Part shown: in pieces, positions 9,675-51,756 of the stretch
How the letters are laid out: each line of letters opens with the position of its first letter
How positions within the stretch are numbered: position 1 is the first letter of the stretch
Assembly: GCA_965249725.1 (NCBI GenBank)
Contig: CBDFMQ010000002.1
Span: forward strand, 448,001-512,000
Direction: 5' to 3'
Source: Longimicrobiales bacterium
Lineage (GTDB): Bacteria > Gemmatimonadota > Gemmatimonadetes > Longimicrobiales > Gaopeijiaceae
DNA: 64,000 bases
Notes under the pieces: generated by a model
What the model was told of the DNA's origin: nothing
Databases searched by the model: none
The model's input: only the letters and a program-made list of their open reading frames with translations
Translations under genes and position numbers: made by a program

Positions 9675-10478
9675 TTGCCGAGCAAGAACAAGATACTCCT
9701 GGTCGAACGCCTGAAGACCCGAAAGGGCCGTCCCAAGGAGGGGCAGGTCCTGGTGGAGGGGGTGCGTTGCGTGCGCGAGGCATTGGCCGCGGAGGTGAAG
9801 GTTCGGTTCTTGGCGCGGTCTCCTCGGCTTCTGAAAACGGAGGCCGGAAGGACCCTCGCGGACGACATCTCGGCTCGAGGGTTGGCCGTGGACGAGGTCG
9901 CCGATGATGACCTCGAGCGCATGGCGGACACCGAACATCCGCAGGGCGTGCTTCTCGTTTGTGAAGAACCGAAGGGGGAACTGGCGCCTCCTTCCGCTTC
10001 GGCGACCGGGACGGGTGTGTCCGGCGGGCCGATTCTGCTTCTCGACGCCATCCAGGACCCCGGCAACCTCGGCACGCTCATCCGGGCGGCTCGGGCATTC
10101 GGCGTCTCGACGGTAGTGGCGCTCGACGGATCGGTCGATCCCTGGAATGCGAAGGCCGTACGGGCCTCGGCCGGGGCGAGCTTCCATGTGCCTGTCGTCC
10201 GGGCGCCATGGTCCGAGGTGGCCCCGTGGCTCGAGAGCCACCGGGTGCAAGTTCTGGCCGCCGATCCCGACGGGCGCGATGTTAGCCAGGTGGAGCCGAC
10301 GACCCCATGGGCGTTGGCGGTTGGCAACGAGGGAGCCGGCCTGCGATCCGAGATCGTGGCGTCCGCTTCGAGCAAAGTGGCCATCCCCATGGGGGCCGAC
10401 GCGGATTCCTTGAACGCCGGCGTGGCGGGTTCGATCCTGCTCTACGTTCTCACAACACGGGGGAGTGACGCTCCTTGA
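9675..10478 (+). CDS. TrmH/SpoU family RNA methyltransferase
   Basis: IQDPGNLGTLIR, GNEGAGL, IPM..ADSLNAGVAGSILLY SPOUT motifs; start uncertain. Confidence 0.92.
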   Translation: MPSKNKILLVERLKTRKGRPKEGQVLVEGVRCVREALAAEVKVRFLARSPRLLKTEAGRTLADDISARGLAVDEVADDDLERMADTEHPQGVLLVCEEPKGELAPPSASATGTGVSGGPILLLDAIQDPGNLGTLIRAARAFGVSTVVALDGSVDPWNAKAVRASAGASFHVPVVRAPWSEVAPWLESHRVQVLAADPDGRDVSQVEPTTPWALAVGNEGAGLRSEIVASASSKVAIPMGADADSLNAGVAGSILLYVLTTRGSDAP

Positions 10479-11254
10479 TCGACCCTTTGATCATCGCTGT
10501 GATCGCCGGAGCCTTCGGGCTCCTCATCGGATCGTTCTTGAACGTGTGCACCCTGCGCTGGCCGCAGGACGAATCCGTGGTCTTCCCGGGCTCACACTGC
10601 ACGTCGTGCGGCGCCGACATCCACTGGTACGACAACATCCCGGTTTTGAGCTACCTGATTCTGAAGGGACGTTGTCGCGCCTGTAAGGAGTCCTATTCCG
10701 TCCAGTATCCGTTGGTCGAACTCACCACCGCTCTCGTGTGGGCCGGCGTGTTCGCCTACGGAGGACTCTCGGGCGAGGCATTCCGCGGTGCGGTCTTCCT
10801 GACGATGCTCTTCGGGATCTCACTGAGCGATGCCCGCTTCTACATCATCCCGGATCAGTTCTCGCTGGGTGGATTGGTGGTCGGACTCGGACTCGCGTTC
10901 GTGCCGGGCGGGCTGACGTGGCTCGAAGCGCTTCTCGGGGCCGTGGTGGGGTTCGCCCTGCTCCGGGGCGTGGCCGTGGCGGGGAAGTGGATGTTCAAGA
11001 AGGACGCCATGGGCGGCGGCGACGTGAAGATGATGGCGATGATCGGAGCGTTCCTGGGATGGCCGGGGGTGCTTCTGACCATCTTCCTGGGATCGCTCCT
11101 GGGCTCGGTGATCTTCGGGCCCATTTCGTGGAAGACCGGGAAGCTCGTGCCCTTCGGGATCTTCCTGGCGGCGGGCGCCGCGGTGACCTACGGGTGGGGG
11201 GACCTGATCATCGGGTGGTATGTGACGTCGGTGCTGAAGATGCCGGCGCCGTAG
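10475..11254 (+). CDS. pilD: Type IV prepilin peptidase / N-methyltransferase (A24)
   Basis: GSFLNVC, two CxxC pairs, DNIPVLSY, MGGGDVKM, VPFGIFLA motifs. Confidence 0.93.
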   Translation: MIDPLIIAVIAGAFGLLIGSFLNVCTLRWPQDESVVFPGSHCTSCGADIHWYDNIPVLSYLILKGRCRACKESYSVQYPLVELTTALVWAGVFAYGGLSGEAFRGAVFLTMLFGISLSDARFYIIPDQFSLGGLVVGLGLAFVPGGLTWLEALLGAVVGFALLRGVAVAGKWMFKKDAMGGGDVKMMAMIGAFLGWPGVLLTIFLGSLLGSVIFGPISWKTGKLVPFGIFLAAGAAVTYGWGDLIIGWYVTSVLKMPAP

Positions 11255-11302
11255 GGGGACGCCCCCGAACTGCGTCGCCCGACCCAGGGCGACGGCCGAT
11301 GC

Positions 11303-43286: not shown

Positions 43287-44285
43287 ATGAGCGCGAGTTT
43301 TCAGCGATCACGGGCCGTCACGGTCTTCCTTGGGGTCTGCCTGCTCGTTTTCGTCCGAGGCCTCTGCGCCCAGGCCGGAACCGTGACGGACGAAGAGAAT
43401 TTTCGCGCTCTGCCGAACGGGACCTTGCTGGGCCAACTCTACCCGGGCGCGGACCTGGCCGTGCTGGATACCTCTGGGGATTGGCTGCAGTTCGAGCTGG
43501 GGGGTTGGGTCTGGACCCCGTCGCTTCAGGTGGTGGGTCGGGGCGACTTCGATCTGGTCGTATCGGCCGTGGAGGGTGAGAACGTTCGTACCATTCCGTC
43601 CGGCGACATCATCGGCCATTTGGAGGAGGGGACTCTGCTCCAGGAGGTCGAACGCGTGCCCGGTTGGGTGAGGGTGCGCCGCACTGCCTGGATCTGGAGT
43701 CCGTCCGTGGCGCTGGAGGAGCCGAGTTCCGGAGAGTCGGCCGGGGCCGTCGACGTCGCCCTCGCCGAAGAGTGGACCATCAGGGGGGAGACCGATGCGG
43801 CGATCCTCAGCACGCCGGATGGAGATACCCTGGCCGCCGCGGCACCCGGGGCGAACCTGAGGATCCTCGCGAGAGAGGGGAACTGGGCCAGGGTCCGGAT
43901 GGACGGTTGGCTGTGGCTTCCCGAGGGAACGGCAGTAGAGGGCGAGACCACGATCCTCACGGACGTGAGCATTCAGGACGTCTCGGCGTCACCACTCGAG
44001 TATCGAGGCCGCGTTCTGCAGTGGGACGTGCAGTTCATCTCGCTGGAGCGCGCTGAGAAGATCCGCACCGACTTTTATGAGGGAGAGCCCTTCCTGCTCA
44101 CCAAGACGGGCCGCGGGGAAGGTGTCTTCGTCTATGTGGCCATTCCGCCGGAGCGGATTCAGGAGGCGGAGGGTCTGAGTCCCCTGGAGCGAATCAGGGT
44201 CGTCGGGCGTGTCAGAACCGGGGCCGCGACCCTCACGGGCAGTCCCATCCTCGAGCTGCTGGCTTTGTCGACCATTCCTCGGTGA
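43287..44285 (+). CDS. Secreted protein with about three SH3b-like repeats and a C-terminal OB-fold-like domain
   Basis: Repeated ENxR..P.G..(L/I)G.L..G...W..V...(G/A)W(V/I/L)W segments; C-terminal YRGRVLQW...IRVVGRV. Confidence 0.6.
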   Translation: MSASFQRSRAVTVFLGVCLLVFVRGLCAQAGTVTDEENFRALPNGTLLGQLYPGADLAVLDTSGDWLQFELGGWVWTPSLQVVGRGDFDLVVSAVEGENVRTIPSGDIIGHLEEGTLLQEVERVPGWVRVRRTAWIWSPSVALEEPSSGESAGAVDVALAEEWTIRGETDAAILSTPDGDTLAAAAPGANLRILAREGNWARVRMDGWLWLPEGTAVEGETTILTDVSIQDVSASPLEYRGRVLQWDVQFISLERAEKIRTDFYEGEPFLLTKTGRGEGVFVYVAIPPERIQEAEGLSPLERIRVVGRVRTGAATLTGSPILELLALSTIPR

Positions 44286-46474
44286 TGGACATGCGAATGC
44301 ATCGGCTCCGAGCTGGAGTCGCATTGCTGGCATCGTTGAGCGTCGCCACCTGCTCGAAGGACGGGACCACCCAACCGCCCACGACCGACCTCGAGTTGGT
44401 GGCCGTGTCGGGAGGGGGTCAGTTCGGCCCCGCGGGTCAGTTGCTCATCGATCCCCTGATGGTGGCCGTCCAGGGAAGCGGCGATGGGCGACCCGCCGCG
44501 GATGTGACGGTGGATTGGACGGTCACCGAGGGTTCTGGGGCCGTGTTGGGACCGGCAACCAGCTCCAGCGACTCCACCGGGCTCACCACGACGGTGTTTC
44601 GGCTGGGGGCGGCGTTGGGTCGGTACCGAGTACAAGCCCGACTGCGAGATCAGCCGGAGCGATTCGTCGAATTCGAGGCCTGGGCCGTGCTGCCTCCGGC
44701 CCTCACCTCTTTGTCCTCGGCGGAAGCCGAGGCGGGGCAAGTGATCACGCTCGAAGGGGACAACTTCAGCTCGATCGCCCCTCACAACATCGTCCTGTTC
44801 TCGGGGATTCGCGGCTCCGTCGTGGCTGCGCAGCCGACACAACTCTCCGTGGAGGTGCCCCCCTGTCTCCCGAGCAGGTCGGTGGAGGTCTCGGTCCGAC
44901 TGGGAGGCGAGGCGAGCGGAGAGCTACCCCTGGCCGTCGAAGCTGCCGGGGACGGTCTGGACTTCGACGTCGGCGCGGACACTACCGTGGTGATTGGAGA
45001 GGCCCCTTCGTGTGTGCGTCTTGCCGCGGGGAATTGGCTTGCGGTGCCGCAGTCGGTGAGCTCGATCGGAGCGGCACGGTTCGACTATCGACTGACCGGC
45101 TTGCGAAAGCCGGTCGTGATCGCGTCTGGCCAGGCCCAACCGCCGGCTCGGTTGGTCGAGGCGCCGTTGCCAGGAAAGACCGCTTCCGCGGCGGGGTCTG
45201 TCCGGGAGGAGTGGAAGCTGTTCCTCAGATCCGTCGAGAAGCGGCTCTTGGGGCGAGGGCGTCGGGCCTTGGAGGGGCCGGCTCTGTCGCCTTCGGCTCT
45301 GTTGCCTCCGGCCCCCGATGTGGGCGATCGAAGGGACTTTGAGGTGGTACGCAGCGACGGAGACTTCGACCAGATCACTGCAGAGGTACGGGTGATCTCG
45401 GAGCGAGCGATTCTATACGTCGATGTCGAAGCGCTGGCCGATTTTCCACAGCAGGATGTCGAGCGTTTCGGCACCATCTTCGATGATCCGATCTACACGG
45501 TCGACGCCGCCGCCTTCGGCAATCCGTCCGACGTGGACCAAAACGGCAAGGTGCTCATTCTCTTCACCCCCGGCGTCAACCGGCTCACCAGCCCGGGGTC
45601 CAGCGATTTCGTGGGGGGGTTCTTCTTCGGTCTCGATCTGTTCACCGAGGCCGAGCACAGCAACGCGGCTGAGGTCTTCTACGTGATGGTGCCCGATCCG
45701 ACGGGCAAGTACGGGAACGTGCAGAACCTCGACGTCATTCGGACGACCGTGCCGGCCATTCTCGCCCACGAGCTGCAGCACATGATCAGCCACAATGAGA
45801 GGATCATCGAGCGCGACGGCGAGCGTGCCGACGCACTCTGGCTCTCCGAGGCTCTAGCCCAGATGGGCGAGGACCTGGTCGGAGAAGAGTTGCGGAGGAG
45901 GGGGAGCTCCGAGGCTGCGGACTATCAGAAGGGCAATTGGCGACGCGCGAATCGCTTCCTCGAGGACCCGGCGGACGTGAGCCTGATCGTCGCCACCGGC
46001 CAGGGAACGCTCGCCGAGCGCGGTGCGGGATGGATGTTCGTTCGCTATCTGAGGGATCAGGCCGGGAGCAACGCCGTGCTGGTGCGGTTAACGCAGACCA
46101 CGCTTACCGGTATCGACAACGTCGAGGAGGTGACGGGTGAGTCTTGGGAAGACCTGTTCTCGGACTGGAGTGCGGCTATTGCGGTTGAGGGCCAACTCGC
46201 AGAGGGCGGCCCGCTGTCTGTCCGTTCTGGTCTGGAGTTTCCCGGTGTGGACCTCGTGGAGACCTTTACCGAAGGGGTTGGAGACTATTCGTTGATCCCC
46301 ACTCTGCTCACCGTTGGTGACTTCAATGCCAACGGGCGACTTTGGTCGTCGGCGGGTGCACACTTCTTGCTGGGAAGTGGGGAGGGCGGATTGGCCCTGA
46401 GTCTGGCCGGAGCGGAGGGGGGAGTGGCTCCTCCTCAGGCCGGTCTCCGGCTCAAGCTCGTGAGGTTGTTCTAG
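44282..46474 (+). CDS. Lipoprotein with Ig-like/IPT domains and a gluzincin-type metallopeptidase domain
   Basis: VATC lipobox-like site; SGGGQFG/VDWTV Ig-like segment; ITLEGDNF IPT-like segment; LAHELQHMI...WLSEALA. Confidence 0.75.
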   Translation: MMDMRMHRLRAGVALLASLSVATCSKDGTTQPPTTDLELVAVSGGGQFGPAGQLLIDPLMVAVQGSGDGRPAADVTVDWTVTEGSGAVLGPATSSSDSTGLTTTVFRLGAALGRYRVQARLRDQPERFVEFEAWAVLPPALTSLSSAEAEAGQVITLEGDNFSSIAPHNIVLFSGIRGSVVAAQPTQLSVEVPPCLPSRSVEVSVRLGGEASGELPLAVEAAGDGLDFDVGADTTVVIGEAPSCVRLAAGNWLAVPQSVSSIGAARFDYRLTGLRKPVVIASGQAQPPARLVEAPLPGKTASAAGSVREEWKLFLRSVEKRLLGRGRRALEGPALSPSALLPPAPDVGDRRDFEVVRSDGDFDQITAEVRVISERAILYVDVEALADFPQQDVERFGTIFDDPIYTVDAAAFGNPSDVDQNGKVLILFTPGVNRLTSPGSSDFVGGFFFGLDLFTEAEHSNAAEVFYVMVPDPTGKYGNVQNLDVIRTTVPAILAHELQHMISHNERIIERDGERADALWLSEALAQMGEDLVGEELRRRGSSEAADYQKGNWRRANRFLEDPADVSLIVATGQGTLAERGAGWMFVRYLRDQAGSNAVLVRLTQTTLTGIDNVEEVTGESWEDLFSDWSAAIAVEGQLAEGGPLSVRSGLEFPGVDLVETFTEGVGDYSLIPTLLTVGDFNANGRLWSSAGAHFLLGSGEGGLALSLAGAEGGVAPPQAGLRLKLVRLF

Positions 46475-48476: not shown

Positions 48477-50300
48477 ATGCCCACTTCGAACGTCCCACGC
48501 CTTGAAGACTACCGCAGCGGGCGGGCAAAACGGTCTGAGCAGACCGCGGCGCTTTACCGAGGAGATCCCGCACGGTCTTGCCTTTTGGGGCATCTTGCCT
48601 CGGCGCAAGAGTTGGTGGGGGCCGATCGGGCCGCTGTGGTATGGGTCGACGAGTATGGCCCAGGCTTGGTTCACGTCCATTGCCTACTCGATCTCGTAGG
48701 GAACCCTCCGCGACGCGATTCTGTAGCCCAGGCGTGCAGGGTAGCCTGGGGCAAGGGTGTGCCCGGTCTCCTCGATGTGCCGGACGTAGAGCGCGGCGGT
48801 GGAATCCCCATATCCGGGGTCCGCAGCTCTTGCTGCGTTGCGATGGGAAGCGATGGGACCCGCGCGTGGTTCCTGGTGGTCGACTCCCTGACACCTCGAT
48901 CGTGCTTGGCGGTCGAGGTCACCGACGAATTGATGTTCGTTGCGGGTGAAGCCGCTGCGGTGGTTCTCCATCAGGATCTGGACCGCAAGGCCACTGGCCC
49001 GAGGCGATTCGGAAAGAGTGCCAGTCCGGAGGCCGGTGAGACCTTCTCGGGATGGGCGATCCTCAAGGACCTCGACGGTCGTGAGGCGGACGCCGAAACG
49101 AATCGCCGCATCGCTACGCGCTTCCTCGTCGCACGTGCGGTGCGCTCCGCTCTGGACGAGGAGCTCACCATGGATCCCGAGGCTCTTCGGCAGCAGGTCG
49201 AAGGAGTGGGGCGTGAGCTCGACGCGGTAGAGCGGGGCGATCCCGAACGCACGGCCTGGGGAGAGGTCCTAGAGGCTCTCGGCTCCGGGGACGGGGTCGA
49301 GCTTGGACGTTCTCTCCTCGAGTTGGCGGATCGCGTGGACATGCTCGGGCACCTGCATGGGTCCCGCGAGCTGTGCAGTCTCGCCTACCAGGTAGCCGTG
49401 ACCTGTGGGTCTGGTGCGATCGCCGGTACCGCGGCCCGCTTCCTGGGTAGAACGCATCGGCGGCTCGGGGCGTGGGAGGACAGCGAAACTTGGTACGGCG
49501 TAGCCCAAAACCTGGGCGAGGCGCTCGGCGACGGGAGGCTCTCGGCTCTGGCCACGAACGGTCTTGGGAGCACCAGCCGCGAGAAGGGCAACCTGCCGCG
49601 GGCTCTCGAGCTGCACACCGAGACTCTGCAATGGGGCGTCGAGGACGGGGACCGCTACATCCAGGGGCTCAGTCATCACGATCTGATGACGGACCAGAAG
49701 CTGTCAGGGCGTTTCGGAGACGCGATTCGGCATGGCTGGGAGGCGGTTCGCCTCTATCCATCCGAGCGAGACCAGCTGCAGGCCCTCACCGACCTGGCAT
49801 GGGCGTTCGTCGAGGTGGGCGAGTACGGAGCTGCCGAGGATGCCTACACCGTGGTGGCGCATCGCACGCAGGACTTCAGATATCGGGTGTATGCGCTCGA
49901 CGCCCTGGCGTATATCGAGGCTCTCCTCGGGAGACGCGAACAGTTCGAGGATCGTATCCAGGCGGTTGACGAAACCCCCTGGAGGACCGGACAGCCCTTC
50001 ATGGTCTCGGAGCTACTCTACTACCGAGGCAAGGCGTACGGCCTTTTGGGCGACGTCGAACTGGCACAGCGTTGGCTTGCGGAGGCGAAAGCCTACTCCG
50101 AAGAACACGGCAACAACCAGATTTCATTCCAGGCGGAGACGGCCCTCGAAGCCCTCGAGTCTGGAGAACTCACGGATGAGGACGCGAGCGGCCGCGCCGA
50201 GCCCGTATCGCTCGACGATATCGATGGCGTCCGCACCGAGCTGAGCTCGATGCGGGGCCAGTTGGTTACAGCAGGTGGAGCGGAGGTACCGGCTACTTAG
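48477..50300 (+). CDS. Cytoplasmic protein with N-terminal GAF-like domain and C-terminal TPR array
   Basis: ADRAAVVWVD...CCVAMG...FLVVD...ELMFVAGEAAAVVL (GAF-like); repeated TPR helices such as FLGRTHRRLGAWEDSETWY, NGLGSTSREKGNLPRALELH and YYRGKAYGLLGDVELAQRWL. Confidence 0.75.
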   Translation: MPTSNVPRLEDYRSGRAKRSEQTAALYRGDPARSCLLGHLASAQELVGADRAAVVWVDEYGPGLVHVHCLLDLVGNPPRRDSVAQACRVAWGKGVPGLLDVPDVERGGGIPISGVRSSCCVAMGSDGTRAWFLVVDSLTPRSCLAVEVTDELMFVAGEAAAVVLHQDLDRKATGPRRFGKSASPEAGETFSGWAILKDLDGREADAETNRRIATRFLVARAVRSALDEELTMDPEALRQQVEGVGRELDAVERGDPERTAWGEVLEALGSGDGVELGRSLLELADRVDMLGHLHGSRELCSLAYQVAVTCGSGAIAGTAARFLGRTHRRLGAWEDSETWYGVAQNLGEALGDGRLSALATNGLGSTSREKGNLPRALELHTETLQWGVEDGDRYIQGLSHHDLMTDQKLSGRFGDAIRHGWEAVRLYPSERDQLQALTDLAWAFVEVGEYGAAEDAYTVVAHRTQDFRYRVYALDALAYIEALLGRREQFEDRIQAVDETPWRTGQPFMVSELLYYRGKAYGLLGDVELAQRWLAEAKAYSEEHGNNQISFQAETALEALESGELTDEDASGRAEPVSLDDIDGVRTELSSMRGQLVTAGGAEVPAT

Positions 50301-50536
50301 CCGTTGCCGCCCGGATTGTGCCCGTTACCACCGGGGTTATGTCCGTTGCCACCAGGATTATGCCCGTTGCCACCAGGATTATGCCCGTTGCCGCCGGGGT
50401 TATGGCCGTTGCCGCCAGGATTGTGAGTCTGGCAGAGGCTGTCACCGGCTGCGCAGTCCAGGCCTGCGGGCGATGAGCAGGCGCTCAGGGCGAACGAAAG
50501 GGCGGCGACGGCGAAACAGAGGCGAAGCTTGGTCAT
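50297..50536 (-). CDS. 79-aa secreted (lipo)peptide precursor ending in (HNPGGNG)x6
   Basis: GGAAGGA SD, MTKLRLCFAVAALSFALSA-C lipoprotein signal, short two-Cys linker, six identical heptapeptides with synonymous-only DNA differences. Confidence 0.85.
   Translation of the reverse strand: MTKLRLCFAVAALSFALSACSSPAGLDCAAGDSLCQTHNPGGNGHNPGGNGHNPGGNGHNPGGNGHNPGGNGHNPGGNG
50300..50425 (-). repeat. 21-bp coding tandem repeat x6 (HNPGGNG)
   Basis: 126 bp = 6 units of CAYAAYCCNGGYGGYAACGGN on the minus strand. Confidence 0.95.
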
Positions 50537-50668
50537 CAAACCAGTTTCCTTCCAGAAGAGAGACTCTGGCTGGGGAGTACGGTACGTCATAGCTTGGTTG
50601 TAAGGTGGATGCGGCATCTTTGGGTGCCGCAATCCTTTCCGACTAGGGGTATACCTTTTCCGAAGGTC

Positions 50669-51472
50669 ATGGCACTAGTAAGCACGTTTACACGGGATCC
50701 GGAGGTTCAGGCGGGCCTCCGAGAGGCGCTCTCGACCGTGCACGACGTCGCCGAGTCCAGGACGCTCGGATGGCTCGCGCTGTCGCTGCGAGAGCGTCCT
50801 GTGAGCGTGTGTATGATCGATTTGGCGTCGATGGGATGGGGTCCGGGCGGACTCGAGCGACTGTTGAGGGTGCGACGCCAGTTTCCGAGCGTCGGGTTCG
50901 TGCTTCTGGCGGGAGCCAAAGAGGATCCCCGGACGCTTTTCGAGGTGGGTCGCCTCGGTTTTCGGAGTCTGGTGGTGCTGAACACCGAGAATCAGGCGTG
51001 GCGGCTGCGCCGAAGCGTGGACAAGGCCCAGGAGAGGGGCGTGACGTCGCGTGTACTCCGCGAGGTGAGCCCCGAGATTGCGCCGCGCGAAACCAAGGCG
51101 CTCCGGCTGGTACTGGACGAGGTCCACAAGTGCTGGTCCGCCGAGGCCTTTTCCGACCTCATGGGCTTGTCCCGTCCCTTCCTGAGCGTCTGTCTGAAGA
51201 GGTCGGGCCTGCCGGCCATCGGACGTCTCCTCGTGTGGTCGAGACTCCTCCATGCCGGCAACTGGCTGGGAGATCCCGGACGGACGGGACAGAGTGTCAG
51301 CCGGCAGCTGGAGTACTCGTCCGGCGCGGCCTTCCGAAGGGCGCTGAAGAGCTACACCGGCGCCACGCCCACCACGGTGGCTTCGCATGGAGGTCTGACC
51401 TTCGTGCTCAGGCACTTTCTGCACGATTGCGGGTTTGAGACTCCGGCCACACCACGCATCTCCGTGGCTTGA
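50669..51472 (+). CDS. AraC-family transcriptional regulator with receiver-like N-terminal domain
   Basis: N-terminal RPVSVCMIDL...LLRVRRQFPSVGFVLL (REC-like); C-terminal WSAEAFSDLMGLSRPFLS and VSRQLEYSSGAAFRRALKSYTGATPT (AraC double HTH). Confidence 0.85.
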   Translation: MALVSTFTRDPEVQAGLREALSTVHDVAESRTLGWLALSLRERPVSVCMIDLASMGWGPGGLERLLRVRRQFPSVGFVLLAGAKEDPRTLFEVGRLGFRSLVVLNTENQAWRLRRSVDKAQERGVTSRVLREVSPEIAPRETKALRLVLDEVHKCWSAEAFSDLMGLSRPFLSVCLKRSGLPAIGRLLVWSRLLHAGNWLGDPGRTGQSVSRQLEYSSGAAFRRALKSYTGATPTTVASHGGLTFVLRHFLHDCGFETPATPRISVA

Positions 51473-51519: not shown

Positions 51520-51756
51520 ATGACTGAATTCCTGGACGAATCAGGACGCGCCTGGGTGGCGACCGTACGATCGGAGTCGGGTACGGACTACAAGGGCCGC
51601 TACTACCTGTACCTCGCGGAAGAAGGTGCGACCGACGCCGGAGTCAGCCTTCTGGACGTGCGGTGGAACAGCCCGGGCACGGCGGAACGAGCGCTCTCCA
51701 CGATGTCCGACGTCGAGTTGCGCAGGCGACTACGGTCAGCCCTGGGACGGGCCTAA
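51520..51756 (+). CDS. Small hypothetical protein
   Basis: 78-aa ORF with typical codon usage filling the gap between the AraC gene and dacB. Confidence 0.65.
   Translation: MTEFLDESGRAWVATVRSESGTDYKGRYYLYLAEEGATDAGVSLLDVRWNSPGTAERALSTMSDVELRRRLRSALGRA

Follow-up and report, generated by a model that had tools for sequence, protein, structure and literature searches.

A TPR protein, mini-lipoprotein and AraC regulator cassette of Gemmatimonadota as a candidate peptide-signalling system

Gene organization of the locus

A three-gene cassette was analysed in a 64,000-nucleotide (nt) stretch of DNA, referred to here as the window, from a Longimicrobiales bacterium of the phylum Gemmatimonadota (GenBank contig CBDFMQ010000002.1, positions 448,001 to 512,000 of the forward strand). 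The cassette comprises a gene for a cytoplasmic protein with a GAF-fold domain and a tetratricopeptide repeat (TPR) superhelix, a convergent gene for a small lipoprotein-type peptide that ends in six identical heptapeptides, and a gene for an AraC-family regulator that diverges from the peptide gene. Comparison with related loci points to the TPR protein and its lipopeptide as the constant part of the cassette, and we tentatively read the arrangement as a peptide-signalling circuit. The features, in coordinates of the window, were as follows.

48477..50300, + strand: GAF-TPR protein gene, open reading frame (ORF) of 607 amino acids (aa)
48501..48971, + strand: N-terminal GAF-fold domain of the TPR protein, residues ~9-165 (from the model)
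49044..50162, + strand: helical N-terminal bundle and TPR superhelix, residues ~190-562 (from the model)
50297..50536, - strand: peptide gene, small ORF of 79 aa counted from ATG, convergent with the TPR gene
50477..50536, - strand: predicted lipoprotein signal peptide, residues 1-20, MTKLRLCFAVAALSFALSAC, lipobox LSAC
50426..50476, - strand: linker with two Cys residues, SSPAGLDCAAGDSLCQT
50300..50425, - strand: six tandem 21-nt units, each encoding HNPGGNG, directly before the stop codon
50297..50299, - strand: stop codon of the peptide gene (TAA), overlapping the TAG of the TPR gene
50537..50668, no strand: divergent control region between the peptide gene and araC, 132 bp
50647..50668, + strand: conserved DNA element GGGTATAyCTTTTyCGAAGrTC, abutting the araC start codon
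50669..51472, + strand: AraC-family regulator, 267 aa, with a receiver-like N-domain (~50669-51043) and HTH_18 (~51155-51379)

A preliminary description made from the letters of the window had given these gene coordinates, the stop overlap, the six heptapeptides and the 132-bp divergent gap, and all were found to be exact to the base. Within the four letters TTAG lie both the TAG of the TPR gene (50298-50300) and, read on the complement of 50297-50299, the TAA of the peptide gene. The ATG at 50669 (MALVSTF...) was the preferred araC start, being common to the orthologues and giving a protein of 267 aa; an alternative longer TTG start at 50594 was not kept among them. With the ATG at 50669, the divergent start codons of the peptide and araC genes are separated by exactly 132 bp. 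The promoter and terminator scan returned no terminator between the convergent TPR and peptide genes. Its sole terminator-like site, fewer than expected by chance, lay at the end of araC (51452-51467).

The mini-lipoprotein and its heptad units

The peptide gene product begins with MTKLRLCFAVAALSFALSAC, in which a basic residue and a hydrophobic core precede the lipobox LSAC. Lipoprotein signals consist of an N-terminal basic residue, a hydrophobic stretch and a lipobox of the form [LVI][ASTVI][GAS]C, and a K/R-hydrophobic-[AGS]C pattern was found in all of the related peptides. The product therefore carries a lipoprotein-type export signal by its sequence, and lipidation is predicted. The two Cys residues of the linker SSPAGLDCAAGDSLCQT could form a disulfide loop; Cys loops of the form C-x6-9-C are a C-terminal feature of the peptide in other families. 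NCBIfam gave no match for the 79-aa peptide.

Among the six units of the window, eight synonymous codon variants and no amino-acid variants were counted. Across 45 distinct loci with 194 units, inter-unit differences fell 32, 26 and 251 times at codon positions 1, 2 and 3, respectively, corresponding to 243 synonymous and 27 non-synonymous codon variants; many of the latter were odd C-terminal tails (-IG, -VSGG) swept into the unit register. The DNA of the units thus differs mainly at third codon positions, which argues for purifying selection on each unit as a peptide. Two other origins of the repeat, a recent slippage artefact and the use of other reading frames, were ruled out by this synonymous drift beneath an identical peptide. 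The same pattern predicts a precursor with many copies of one peptide.

For a wider sample, 80 metagenomic loci were fetched with a narrower TPR alignment (A2). Of these, 52 were usable, having a complete 3' end of the TPR gene and at least 260 bp downstream; the other 28 were without one of these. Exact tandem units, numbering 2-10 and all of period seven, were present in 42 of the 52. The rest comprised four loci with one unit, three with spaced units, one with a Cys loop only, and two that were seemingly broken. The heptad consensus was [HY]-x-P-[DG]-x-G-[NSQGA], with 45 distinct units among 54 distinct loci and a copy number spanning 1 to 10. Copy number changes fast, five units in one locus and two in another standing beside 100% identical TPR proteins, and on this pattern the variation appears dosage-like. 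Normalised mutual information between the seven peptide positions and the TPR columns (54 pairs) reached 0.4-0.5 at the top of a flat distribution that covered both domains and was dominated by shared ancestry.

Some cassettes in the metagenome and genome loci were called as broken. An in-frame stop was seen just before the repeats in L082/L030, which are one organism in two collections, and a probable frameshift after the first unit in L110. Stops or frameshifts in the TPR gene of L026 and L028 may be long-read assembly errors.

The mini-lipoprotein could simply be the output of the AraC/TPR pair. It would then be a regulated envelope lipoprotein that stays anchored, its repeated polar tail acting outside the cytoplasm (in binding metal through His, Asp or Asn, in hydration or adhesion, or as ligand of a periplasmic partner), and the cytoplasmic cue read by the GAF-TPR protein would have nothing to do with the peptide. 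The predicted anchor and the promoter shared divergently with AraC, the usual layout of a regulator and its target, suit this account; so do the GAF domain, as a different input, and the many units that start with His and contain Asp or Asn. His is, however, not conserved, being absent from YDIGSNS, YQPGPNA, GTLGSGN and IQPGTGN. The same units weakened the idea of metal-binding His repeats of the prion-octarepeat type, which was considered separately. Furthermore, a tail of one to three heptads, or of a 10-residue Cys loop, is too short to build a structural element, and structural repeats usually tolerate variation, yet the units here are identical. A beta-solenoid of heptads was rejected because many loci have only 1-3 units. 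A purely envelope-borne role is on balance unlikely, and the paralogues described below add a further point against it.

Structure of the GAF-TPR protein

The N terminus of the large protein is hydrophilic and has no signal peptide, placing the protein in the cytoplasm. Its orthologues were 35-89% identical, and its public annotation is either 'TPR repeat protein' or 'hypothetical protein'. Pfam recognised TPR_12 only, with no match to the GAF models at E<=0.1. An AlphaFold2 (AF2) model of the 607-aa protein, built from 20 homologues, had a predicted local distance difference test (pLDDT) score of 85.8 and comprised an alpha/beta domain (residues 9-165), a disordered linker, a helical bundle with a TPR superhelix (~190-562) and a terminal helix. 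The N-terminal domain modelled alone (~9-165) scored 86.1. The 50 Foldseek matches listed for it included phytochrome and cyanobacteriochrome GAF domains, sensor-kinase GAF domains and the GAF-fold free methionine-R-sulfoxide reductase; the best E value among the matches listed was 1.7e-6, and the template modelling (TM) score was about 0.5-0.6 for the GAF matches. ESM-Atlas GAF features and clusters gave a score of 0.97. The model thus confirmed a GAF fold for this domain, and the 'GAF-like' label of the preliminary description was right. The domain is limited to the protein of the window's family and is missing from sister-family homologues; the helical bundle and TPR superhelix form the core common to the whole class-wide family.

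The TPR protein contains at least 8 helix pairs, and no DNA-binding domain could be recognised in it; its length is 607 aa here and 420-490 aa in other families. Foldseek placed LGN/Pins at the top for the TPR part (E 1.6e-8), with RapI, NprR and RapJ at ranks 33-41. In receptors of the RRNPP/RRNPPA type, 5-9 TPR motifs shape a superhelix, as set out in parts of PMC9765709. The protein modelled here is likewise a cytoplasmic one with a superhelix in that range.

NCBIfam held no model for the TPR protein and gave one far sub-threshold match of its TPR region, to the TPR protein of a cyclophane RiPP (ribosomally synthesized and post-translationally modified peptide) pathway. This match counts in favour of a multi-core RiPP-like precursor, in which the aromatic-x-Pro units would be modified by enzymes encoded elsewhere, with the TPR protein as scaffold or recognition factor. 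Repeated short cores behind a leader also resemble multi-core RiPP precursors. The match, however, scored 27 bits against a cut-off of 1125 and covered TPR repeats only. No radical-SAM, YcaO, lanthionine or other tailoring enzyme was found within ~8 kb on either side, nor beside the cassettes of other families, and the leader, being a lipoprotein export signal of the ordinary kind, would take the cores out of the cytoplasm. Very little credence is given to a RiPP-like origin.

The AraC regulator and the control region

The preliminary description had presented the regulator as an AraC protein with a receiver-like domain, and the first half of that statement fared better than the second. Pfam HTH_18 scored 28 bits on the window's protein, below the 33.6-bit cut-off, and 42-65 bits on its orthologues. 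A profile of the AraC family (A3), searched against the PDB, matched AraC DNA-binding domains with E values down to 1.5e-17 (AdpA). These matches assign a C-terminal AraC/XylS double helix-turn-helix domain to the regulator. Receiver likeness was weakly supported: the same profile matched the receivers of FleR (E 4.7e-4) and PhoP (1.2e-3) over positions 3-106 and that of RcsB at E about 0.08-0.13, receiver matches spanning positions 3-121. Receivers are marked by a phospho-acceptor Asp at the end of strand 3, an acidic pair after strand 1 and a Lys after strand 5. Asp occupies the expected acceptor place in the window (CMIDL) and in most orthologues, with E, N or H in some; the acidic pair and the Lys are not conserved. 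The N-terminal domain is probably a pseudo-receiver.

No sigma-70 consensus promoter was found in the 132-bp region by the promoter scan, and no Rfam match at E<=1 was obtained for 50250-50750. The element GGGTATAyCTTTTyCGAAGrTC stood out in this region, with columns at least 80% conserved in 40 distinct loci that share only 35-60% identity in their proteins. In most loci it contains an inverted repeat, ATCTT-5 nt-AAGAT, and ~12 nt further upstream stands another conserved block, TAGTATCAyTTT. The element, which may be an operator or a 5'-leader element, was absent from the loci of other families. It occurs once in the 4.16-Mb genome, and its use as a regulon marker was rejected for want of further genomic copies.

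Linkage within the window's family

A convergent ORF with a lipoprotein signal followed the TPR gene in 52/52 metagenomic loci, starting -3 to +105 bp from the TPR stop. The background of ORFs matching the lipoprotein-signal pattern, taken from the window's own genome, was 0.016 per 410 bp per strand. By this comparison the mini-lipoprotein gene is real and beyond chance. The convergent gene was also present in all 13 family genomes having sequence downstream of the TPR gene, and in all eight further genome records that could be judged, two of them defective. The AraC gene was kept in 43 of the 52 metagenomic loci; the contigs of the other nine stop within 555 bp.

The neighbourhood of the cassette extends over 15 kb in the order MoeA, SH3 protein, protease, zinc-ribbon membrane protein, EamA, TPR, peptide, AraC, 78-aa ORF, S13 peptidase and FAD oxidase; an acyl-CoA synthetase is a further neighbour in the window. 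Because this neighbourhood is collinear within the family, synteny there proves little. In the loci of other families, none of the flanking genes was found conserved beside the cassette.

The 78-aa ORF (51520-51756, + strand) directly follows araC and was found at 53-86% identity in 7/8 genome records reaching past araC. It had no family match and sits where other families have a lone receiver gene.

A second TPR paralogue was noted in the same genome as the window, outside it (G000 contig C3, ~2,921,380-2,922,890). It has a GAF-like N-segment with 31% identity to window residues 27-137, one in-frame TAG in the profile match, and its own convergent lipopeptide of 45 aa, Trp/Pro-rich and with two Cys in the tail. 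An AraC gene was not found within ~4 kb of it.

Repeat-free cassettes in other families

The phylum was surveyed with a profile of the TPR core (A1) in 301 sampled genomes at E<=1e-15; the tallies include one unpublished genome (G192). The core was found in 134/301 genomes, including 65/125 in family f4 and 51/69 in family f5. Homologues in the sister family f3 are ~430 aa long and have no GAF domain. There, AraC precedes the TPR gene in the same orientation, 2/4 loci have a convergent lipopeptide that is acidic and ends in -NNN, and none of the other 8 window neighbours is shared. Retention of the three genes in a different order, with no other shared neighbour, indicates that their linkage is not mere collinearity.

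In families f4, f5 and f6, the TPR gene was followed by a convergent lipoprotein gene of 40-51 aa in 22/22 inspected loci. AraC came next in 20 of these; one contig ended first, and in one locus no AraC was found. A lone single-domain receiver directly followed AraC in at least 10 loci (Pfam Response_reg, E 1e-13 to 1e-19). The peptides are non-repetitive and end in a Cys loop (CDQNSQNTCH, CPVSTGSSTCK) or in -QGANN/-QGSNN. The three genes stay linked across two orders of the phylum. It had been predicted that homologues of the TPR protein would be accompanied by a small signal-peptide ORF with a Gly-rich C-terminal motif, and by the AraC gene. The first was borne out at 13/13, 52/52 and 22/22 loci in the samples described, and the second also held, with a different order in f3.

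One complete genome of family f2 carries eight TPR paralogues, of which two stand beside AraC genes, one beside MarR and one beside CheB. Each of six paralogues is accompanied by a convergent lipopeptide of its own with the C terminus -G[SA]G[NGH], and the lipopeptide of a seventh is 1.4 kb away. Since TPR paralogues lacking AraC keep a private lipopeptide, the peptide appears tied to the TPR protein rather than to AraC; this also tells against the envelope lipoprotein account, in which the peptide is a target of the regulator. Judged from these loci, the invariant unit is a TPR protein with a private lipopeptide, partnered most often by AraC. Heptad repeats and the GAF domain co-occur only in the window's family, whose peptide retains a Cys pair before the repeats in the window. 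The repeats and the GAF domain are accordingly, on this distribution, a family-specific elaboration of an older repeat-free cassette.

In four f2 lipopeptides (L039, L040, L044 and L045; genome G039), D-T-T-G-R-G-G (or TRGGG, EGRGG) stands before the last 6-9 residues, and the ends read ...TWIGSGN, ...YMGSGG, ...VRGSGG and ...FGIGAGN. The motif has the look of a conserved site of cleavage, at which a C-terminal peptide would be set free.

The far side of the TPR gene is lineage-specific in f4 and f5 (L133-L150), with a GspH-like pseudopilin in six f4 loci and a polysaccharide deacetylase in four f5 loci. At L155, an OppA/DppA-type peptide-binding protein (SBP_bac_5) lies beside the TPR gene on that side.

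The feature of the peptide that is conserved family-wide is its extreme C terminus (-GSGN, -GANN, -NNN or a Cys loop). Recognition of a free C terminus would fit this, and TPR domains such as those of PEX5 and Hop read C-termini. An export-coupled partner switch was weighed, in which the TPR protein holds the C-terminal tail of the unexported pre-lipoprotein and is freed by export to activate or inhibit AraC. What transcription reflects would in that case be the capacity for export or lipoprotein processing, not cell density; the precursor is so short that its export could be wholly post-translational. Once exported, the peptide is no longer in the compartment of the TPR protein, and the joint encoding of a TPR protein, an AraC regulator and a small exported protein follows the logic of IpgC/MxiE. 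The best structural matches (LGN) bind long extended peptides, of which a tandem tail could be one, and slow evolution of the units fits an internal partner. Set against these points, the peptide has anywhere from 1 to 10 units while the TPR number is fixed, the unit count varies beside identical TPR proteins, and a class II chaperone is only a quarter to a third as large as the TPR protein. No secretion system or export gene was linked to the cassette among the window neighbours or in the loci of other families, and we know of no precedent for such monitoring of Sec/lipoprotein export. A switch of this kind we hold to be improbable.

A possible peptide circuit

Our favoured reading, to which we give slightly less than an even chance, is that the pre-lipoprotein is exported, cut to heptapeptides and sensed in the cytoplasm by the GAF-TPR protein, altering the neighbouring AraC regulator. 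All steps after export are inferred. Signal peptidase II and lipidation would tether the precursor to the membrane, and an extracytoplasmic protease would free the units. One candidate for this protease is an M30-like metalloprotease lipoprotein encoded two genes upstream (44282-46474, + strand; 730 aa), which has Ig-like (TIG) domains and an HExxH region and matches the M30 neutral metalloprotease lugdulysin at E 7.7e-17 over residues 347-533; its role in processing is speculative. The ~0.7-kDa peptides would build up outside the cell and re-enter through an oligopeptide permease. SBP_bac_5 had four matches in the genome, all above the cut-off, and with two adjacent matches read as one gene at least three genes of the OppA/DppA type are present. 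The TPR groove would then bind the peptide, and binding would change the contact between the TPR protein and AraC, much as Rap proteins sequester ComA or act on Spo0F. AraC would control the 132-bp divergent promoter and hence the peptide gene itself, and the GAF domain, present only in the family with heptads, may add a second, small-molecule input.

A precursor with several signals has parallels. In parts of PMC11343458, tandemly duplicated pheromones in Phr pro-peptides are described as processed to several active peptides, and sections of PMC9765709 describe several peptides per pro-peptide as common in the RRNPP family.

Several observations weigh against the circuit. No protease or importer was found to travel with the cassette across families in the loci compared, the M30-like protease being collinear with it inside the family only. 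Import of the older Cys-loop tails would mean taking up disulfide loops, unless those tails are sensed in another way. Unit sequence is slow to change, with 0-1 change in 7 at 60-85% TPR identity, unlike the private 'pherotypes' of many Gram-positive systems; fast-diverging pherotypes were rejected here, the units changing no faster than the TPR protein. In fold, the TPR part resembles Rap and NprR no better than it resembles generic TPR superhelices. The protein is patchily distributed, not being found in 43/47 genomes of the window's family in the phylum sample, with counts of 0/19 in genus g36 and 0/10 in genus g6, whose genomes are mostly at least 95% complete; a first sample had it in 13/24 genomes. 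By this distribution the cassette is accessory. Finally, in the nearest relative (L024, 89% TPR identity), araC is split after ~codon 30 by a ~1-kb insertion (10203-11256) carrying an IS630-like DDE_3/HTH transposase (Pfam E 4.8e-27). Both other genes of the cassette, for the TPR protein and the six-unit peptide, are intact there, one unit having N changed to K, and the locus is, as read from its sequence, a natural araC knock-out.

The analogy with RRNPP circuits drawn in the preliminary description is partly supported, by the conserved peptide and AraC neighbours. A broader form of the proposed circuit would make these cassettes phylum-wide pheromone circuits of Gemmatimonadota and the first receptor/pro-peptide quorum-sensing family of an outer-membrane phylum. 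The Longimicrobiales branch would use a lipid-anchored polyprotein, with up to ten identical heptapeptides per translation, read by a cytoplasmic GAF-TPR receptor governing a pseudo-receiver AraC. This wider claim is put forward as a possibility that we consider doubtful.

Pairs of a TPR receptor and a pro-peptide of the RRNPP type are treated as a feature of Gram-positive Bacillota and mobile elements in the parts of PMC9765709 and PMC10075063 that bear on this. A literature search, with subscription journals outside it, found no paper tying Gemmatimonadota to peptide signalling or describing the cassette. If the proposed circuit is true, peptide signalling extends to a new cell plan, that of the outer-membrane Gemmatimonadota, a widespread and poorly studied phylum of soil and water. 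Dozens of natural peptide/receptor pairs would be available for testing, and a peptide gene missed by annotation pipelines would gain a function. A multi-copy precursor with perfectly kept units is a rare bacterial peptide precursor in the style of a polyprotein. Even if the signalling interpretation fails, a pair of TPR protein and mini-lipoprotein that persists through paralogue expansion needs explanation.

Comparison with known systems

The closest likeness is to the Rap-Phr systems of Bacillus, plasmids and phages. Rap receptors are ~380-430 residues long, a size matched by the bundle and superhelix of the window's protein, and combine a helical bundle with a TPR superhelix and no DNA-binding domain; beside them lies a tiny gene for an exported pro-peptide, the informative part of which is C-terminal. 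Rap-Phr cassettes are likewise multiplied as paralogues, and several peptide copies per precursor are known from the Phr of phi3T and phi105 (described in part of PMC11343458). Partners in both are receiver-domain proteins or transcription factors, here a receiver-like AraC protein and elsewhere in the phylum a lone receiver that recalls Spo0F. The Gemmatimonadota cassette differs in belonging to an outer-membrane phylum, in its lipobox signal and in having convergent rather than co-directional genes. It also encodes its own AraC partner, holds as many as 10 exact heptads, gains a GAF domain in the window's family and includes older Cys-loop peptides. At the sequence level the TPR protein was not placed in the Rap family.

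Type III secretion provides a second comparison, SicA/InvF being one of its pairs of TPR chaperone and AraC regulator. In another, the TPR chaperone IpgC is held by the secreted proteins IpaB and IpaC and co-activates the AraC regulator MxiE after their exit, as described in parts of PMC3299695 and PMC10701871. A TPR protein, an AraC protein and an exported protein are encoded together in both cases, and in IpgC/MxiE it is the cytoplasmic presence of the exported protein that sets the activity of the regulator. Such chaperones have ~3.5 TPRs (given in part of PMC10701871) and ~155 residues, whereas the TPR protein here numbers 430-607 residues with at least 8 helix pairs. The exported proteins that they pair with are large type III translocators, in place of which the present cassette has a lipoprotein of 40-95 residues handled by Sec and signal peptidase II. 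No type III apparatus or translocator genes were found among the Pfam-scanned window neighbours or in the loci of other families.

Two further systems share the form of the precursor. The yeast alpha-factor precursor likewise has a signal peptide followed by tandem identical short peptides, with a copy number that varies between strains. There, the units are separated by spacers cut by Kex2 and the receptor is at the cell surface, whereas here the units abut one another and the candidate receptor is cytoplasmic. In the enterococcal sex pheromones read by the RRNPP member PrgX, a lipoprotein precursor yields a peptide signal that is read in the cytoplasm; the signal in that case is the hydrophobic signal peptide, whereas the candidate signal of the Gemmatimonadota cassette is the conserved, repeated and polar C terminus of the mature lipoprotein.

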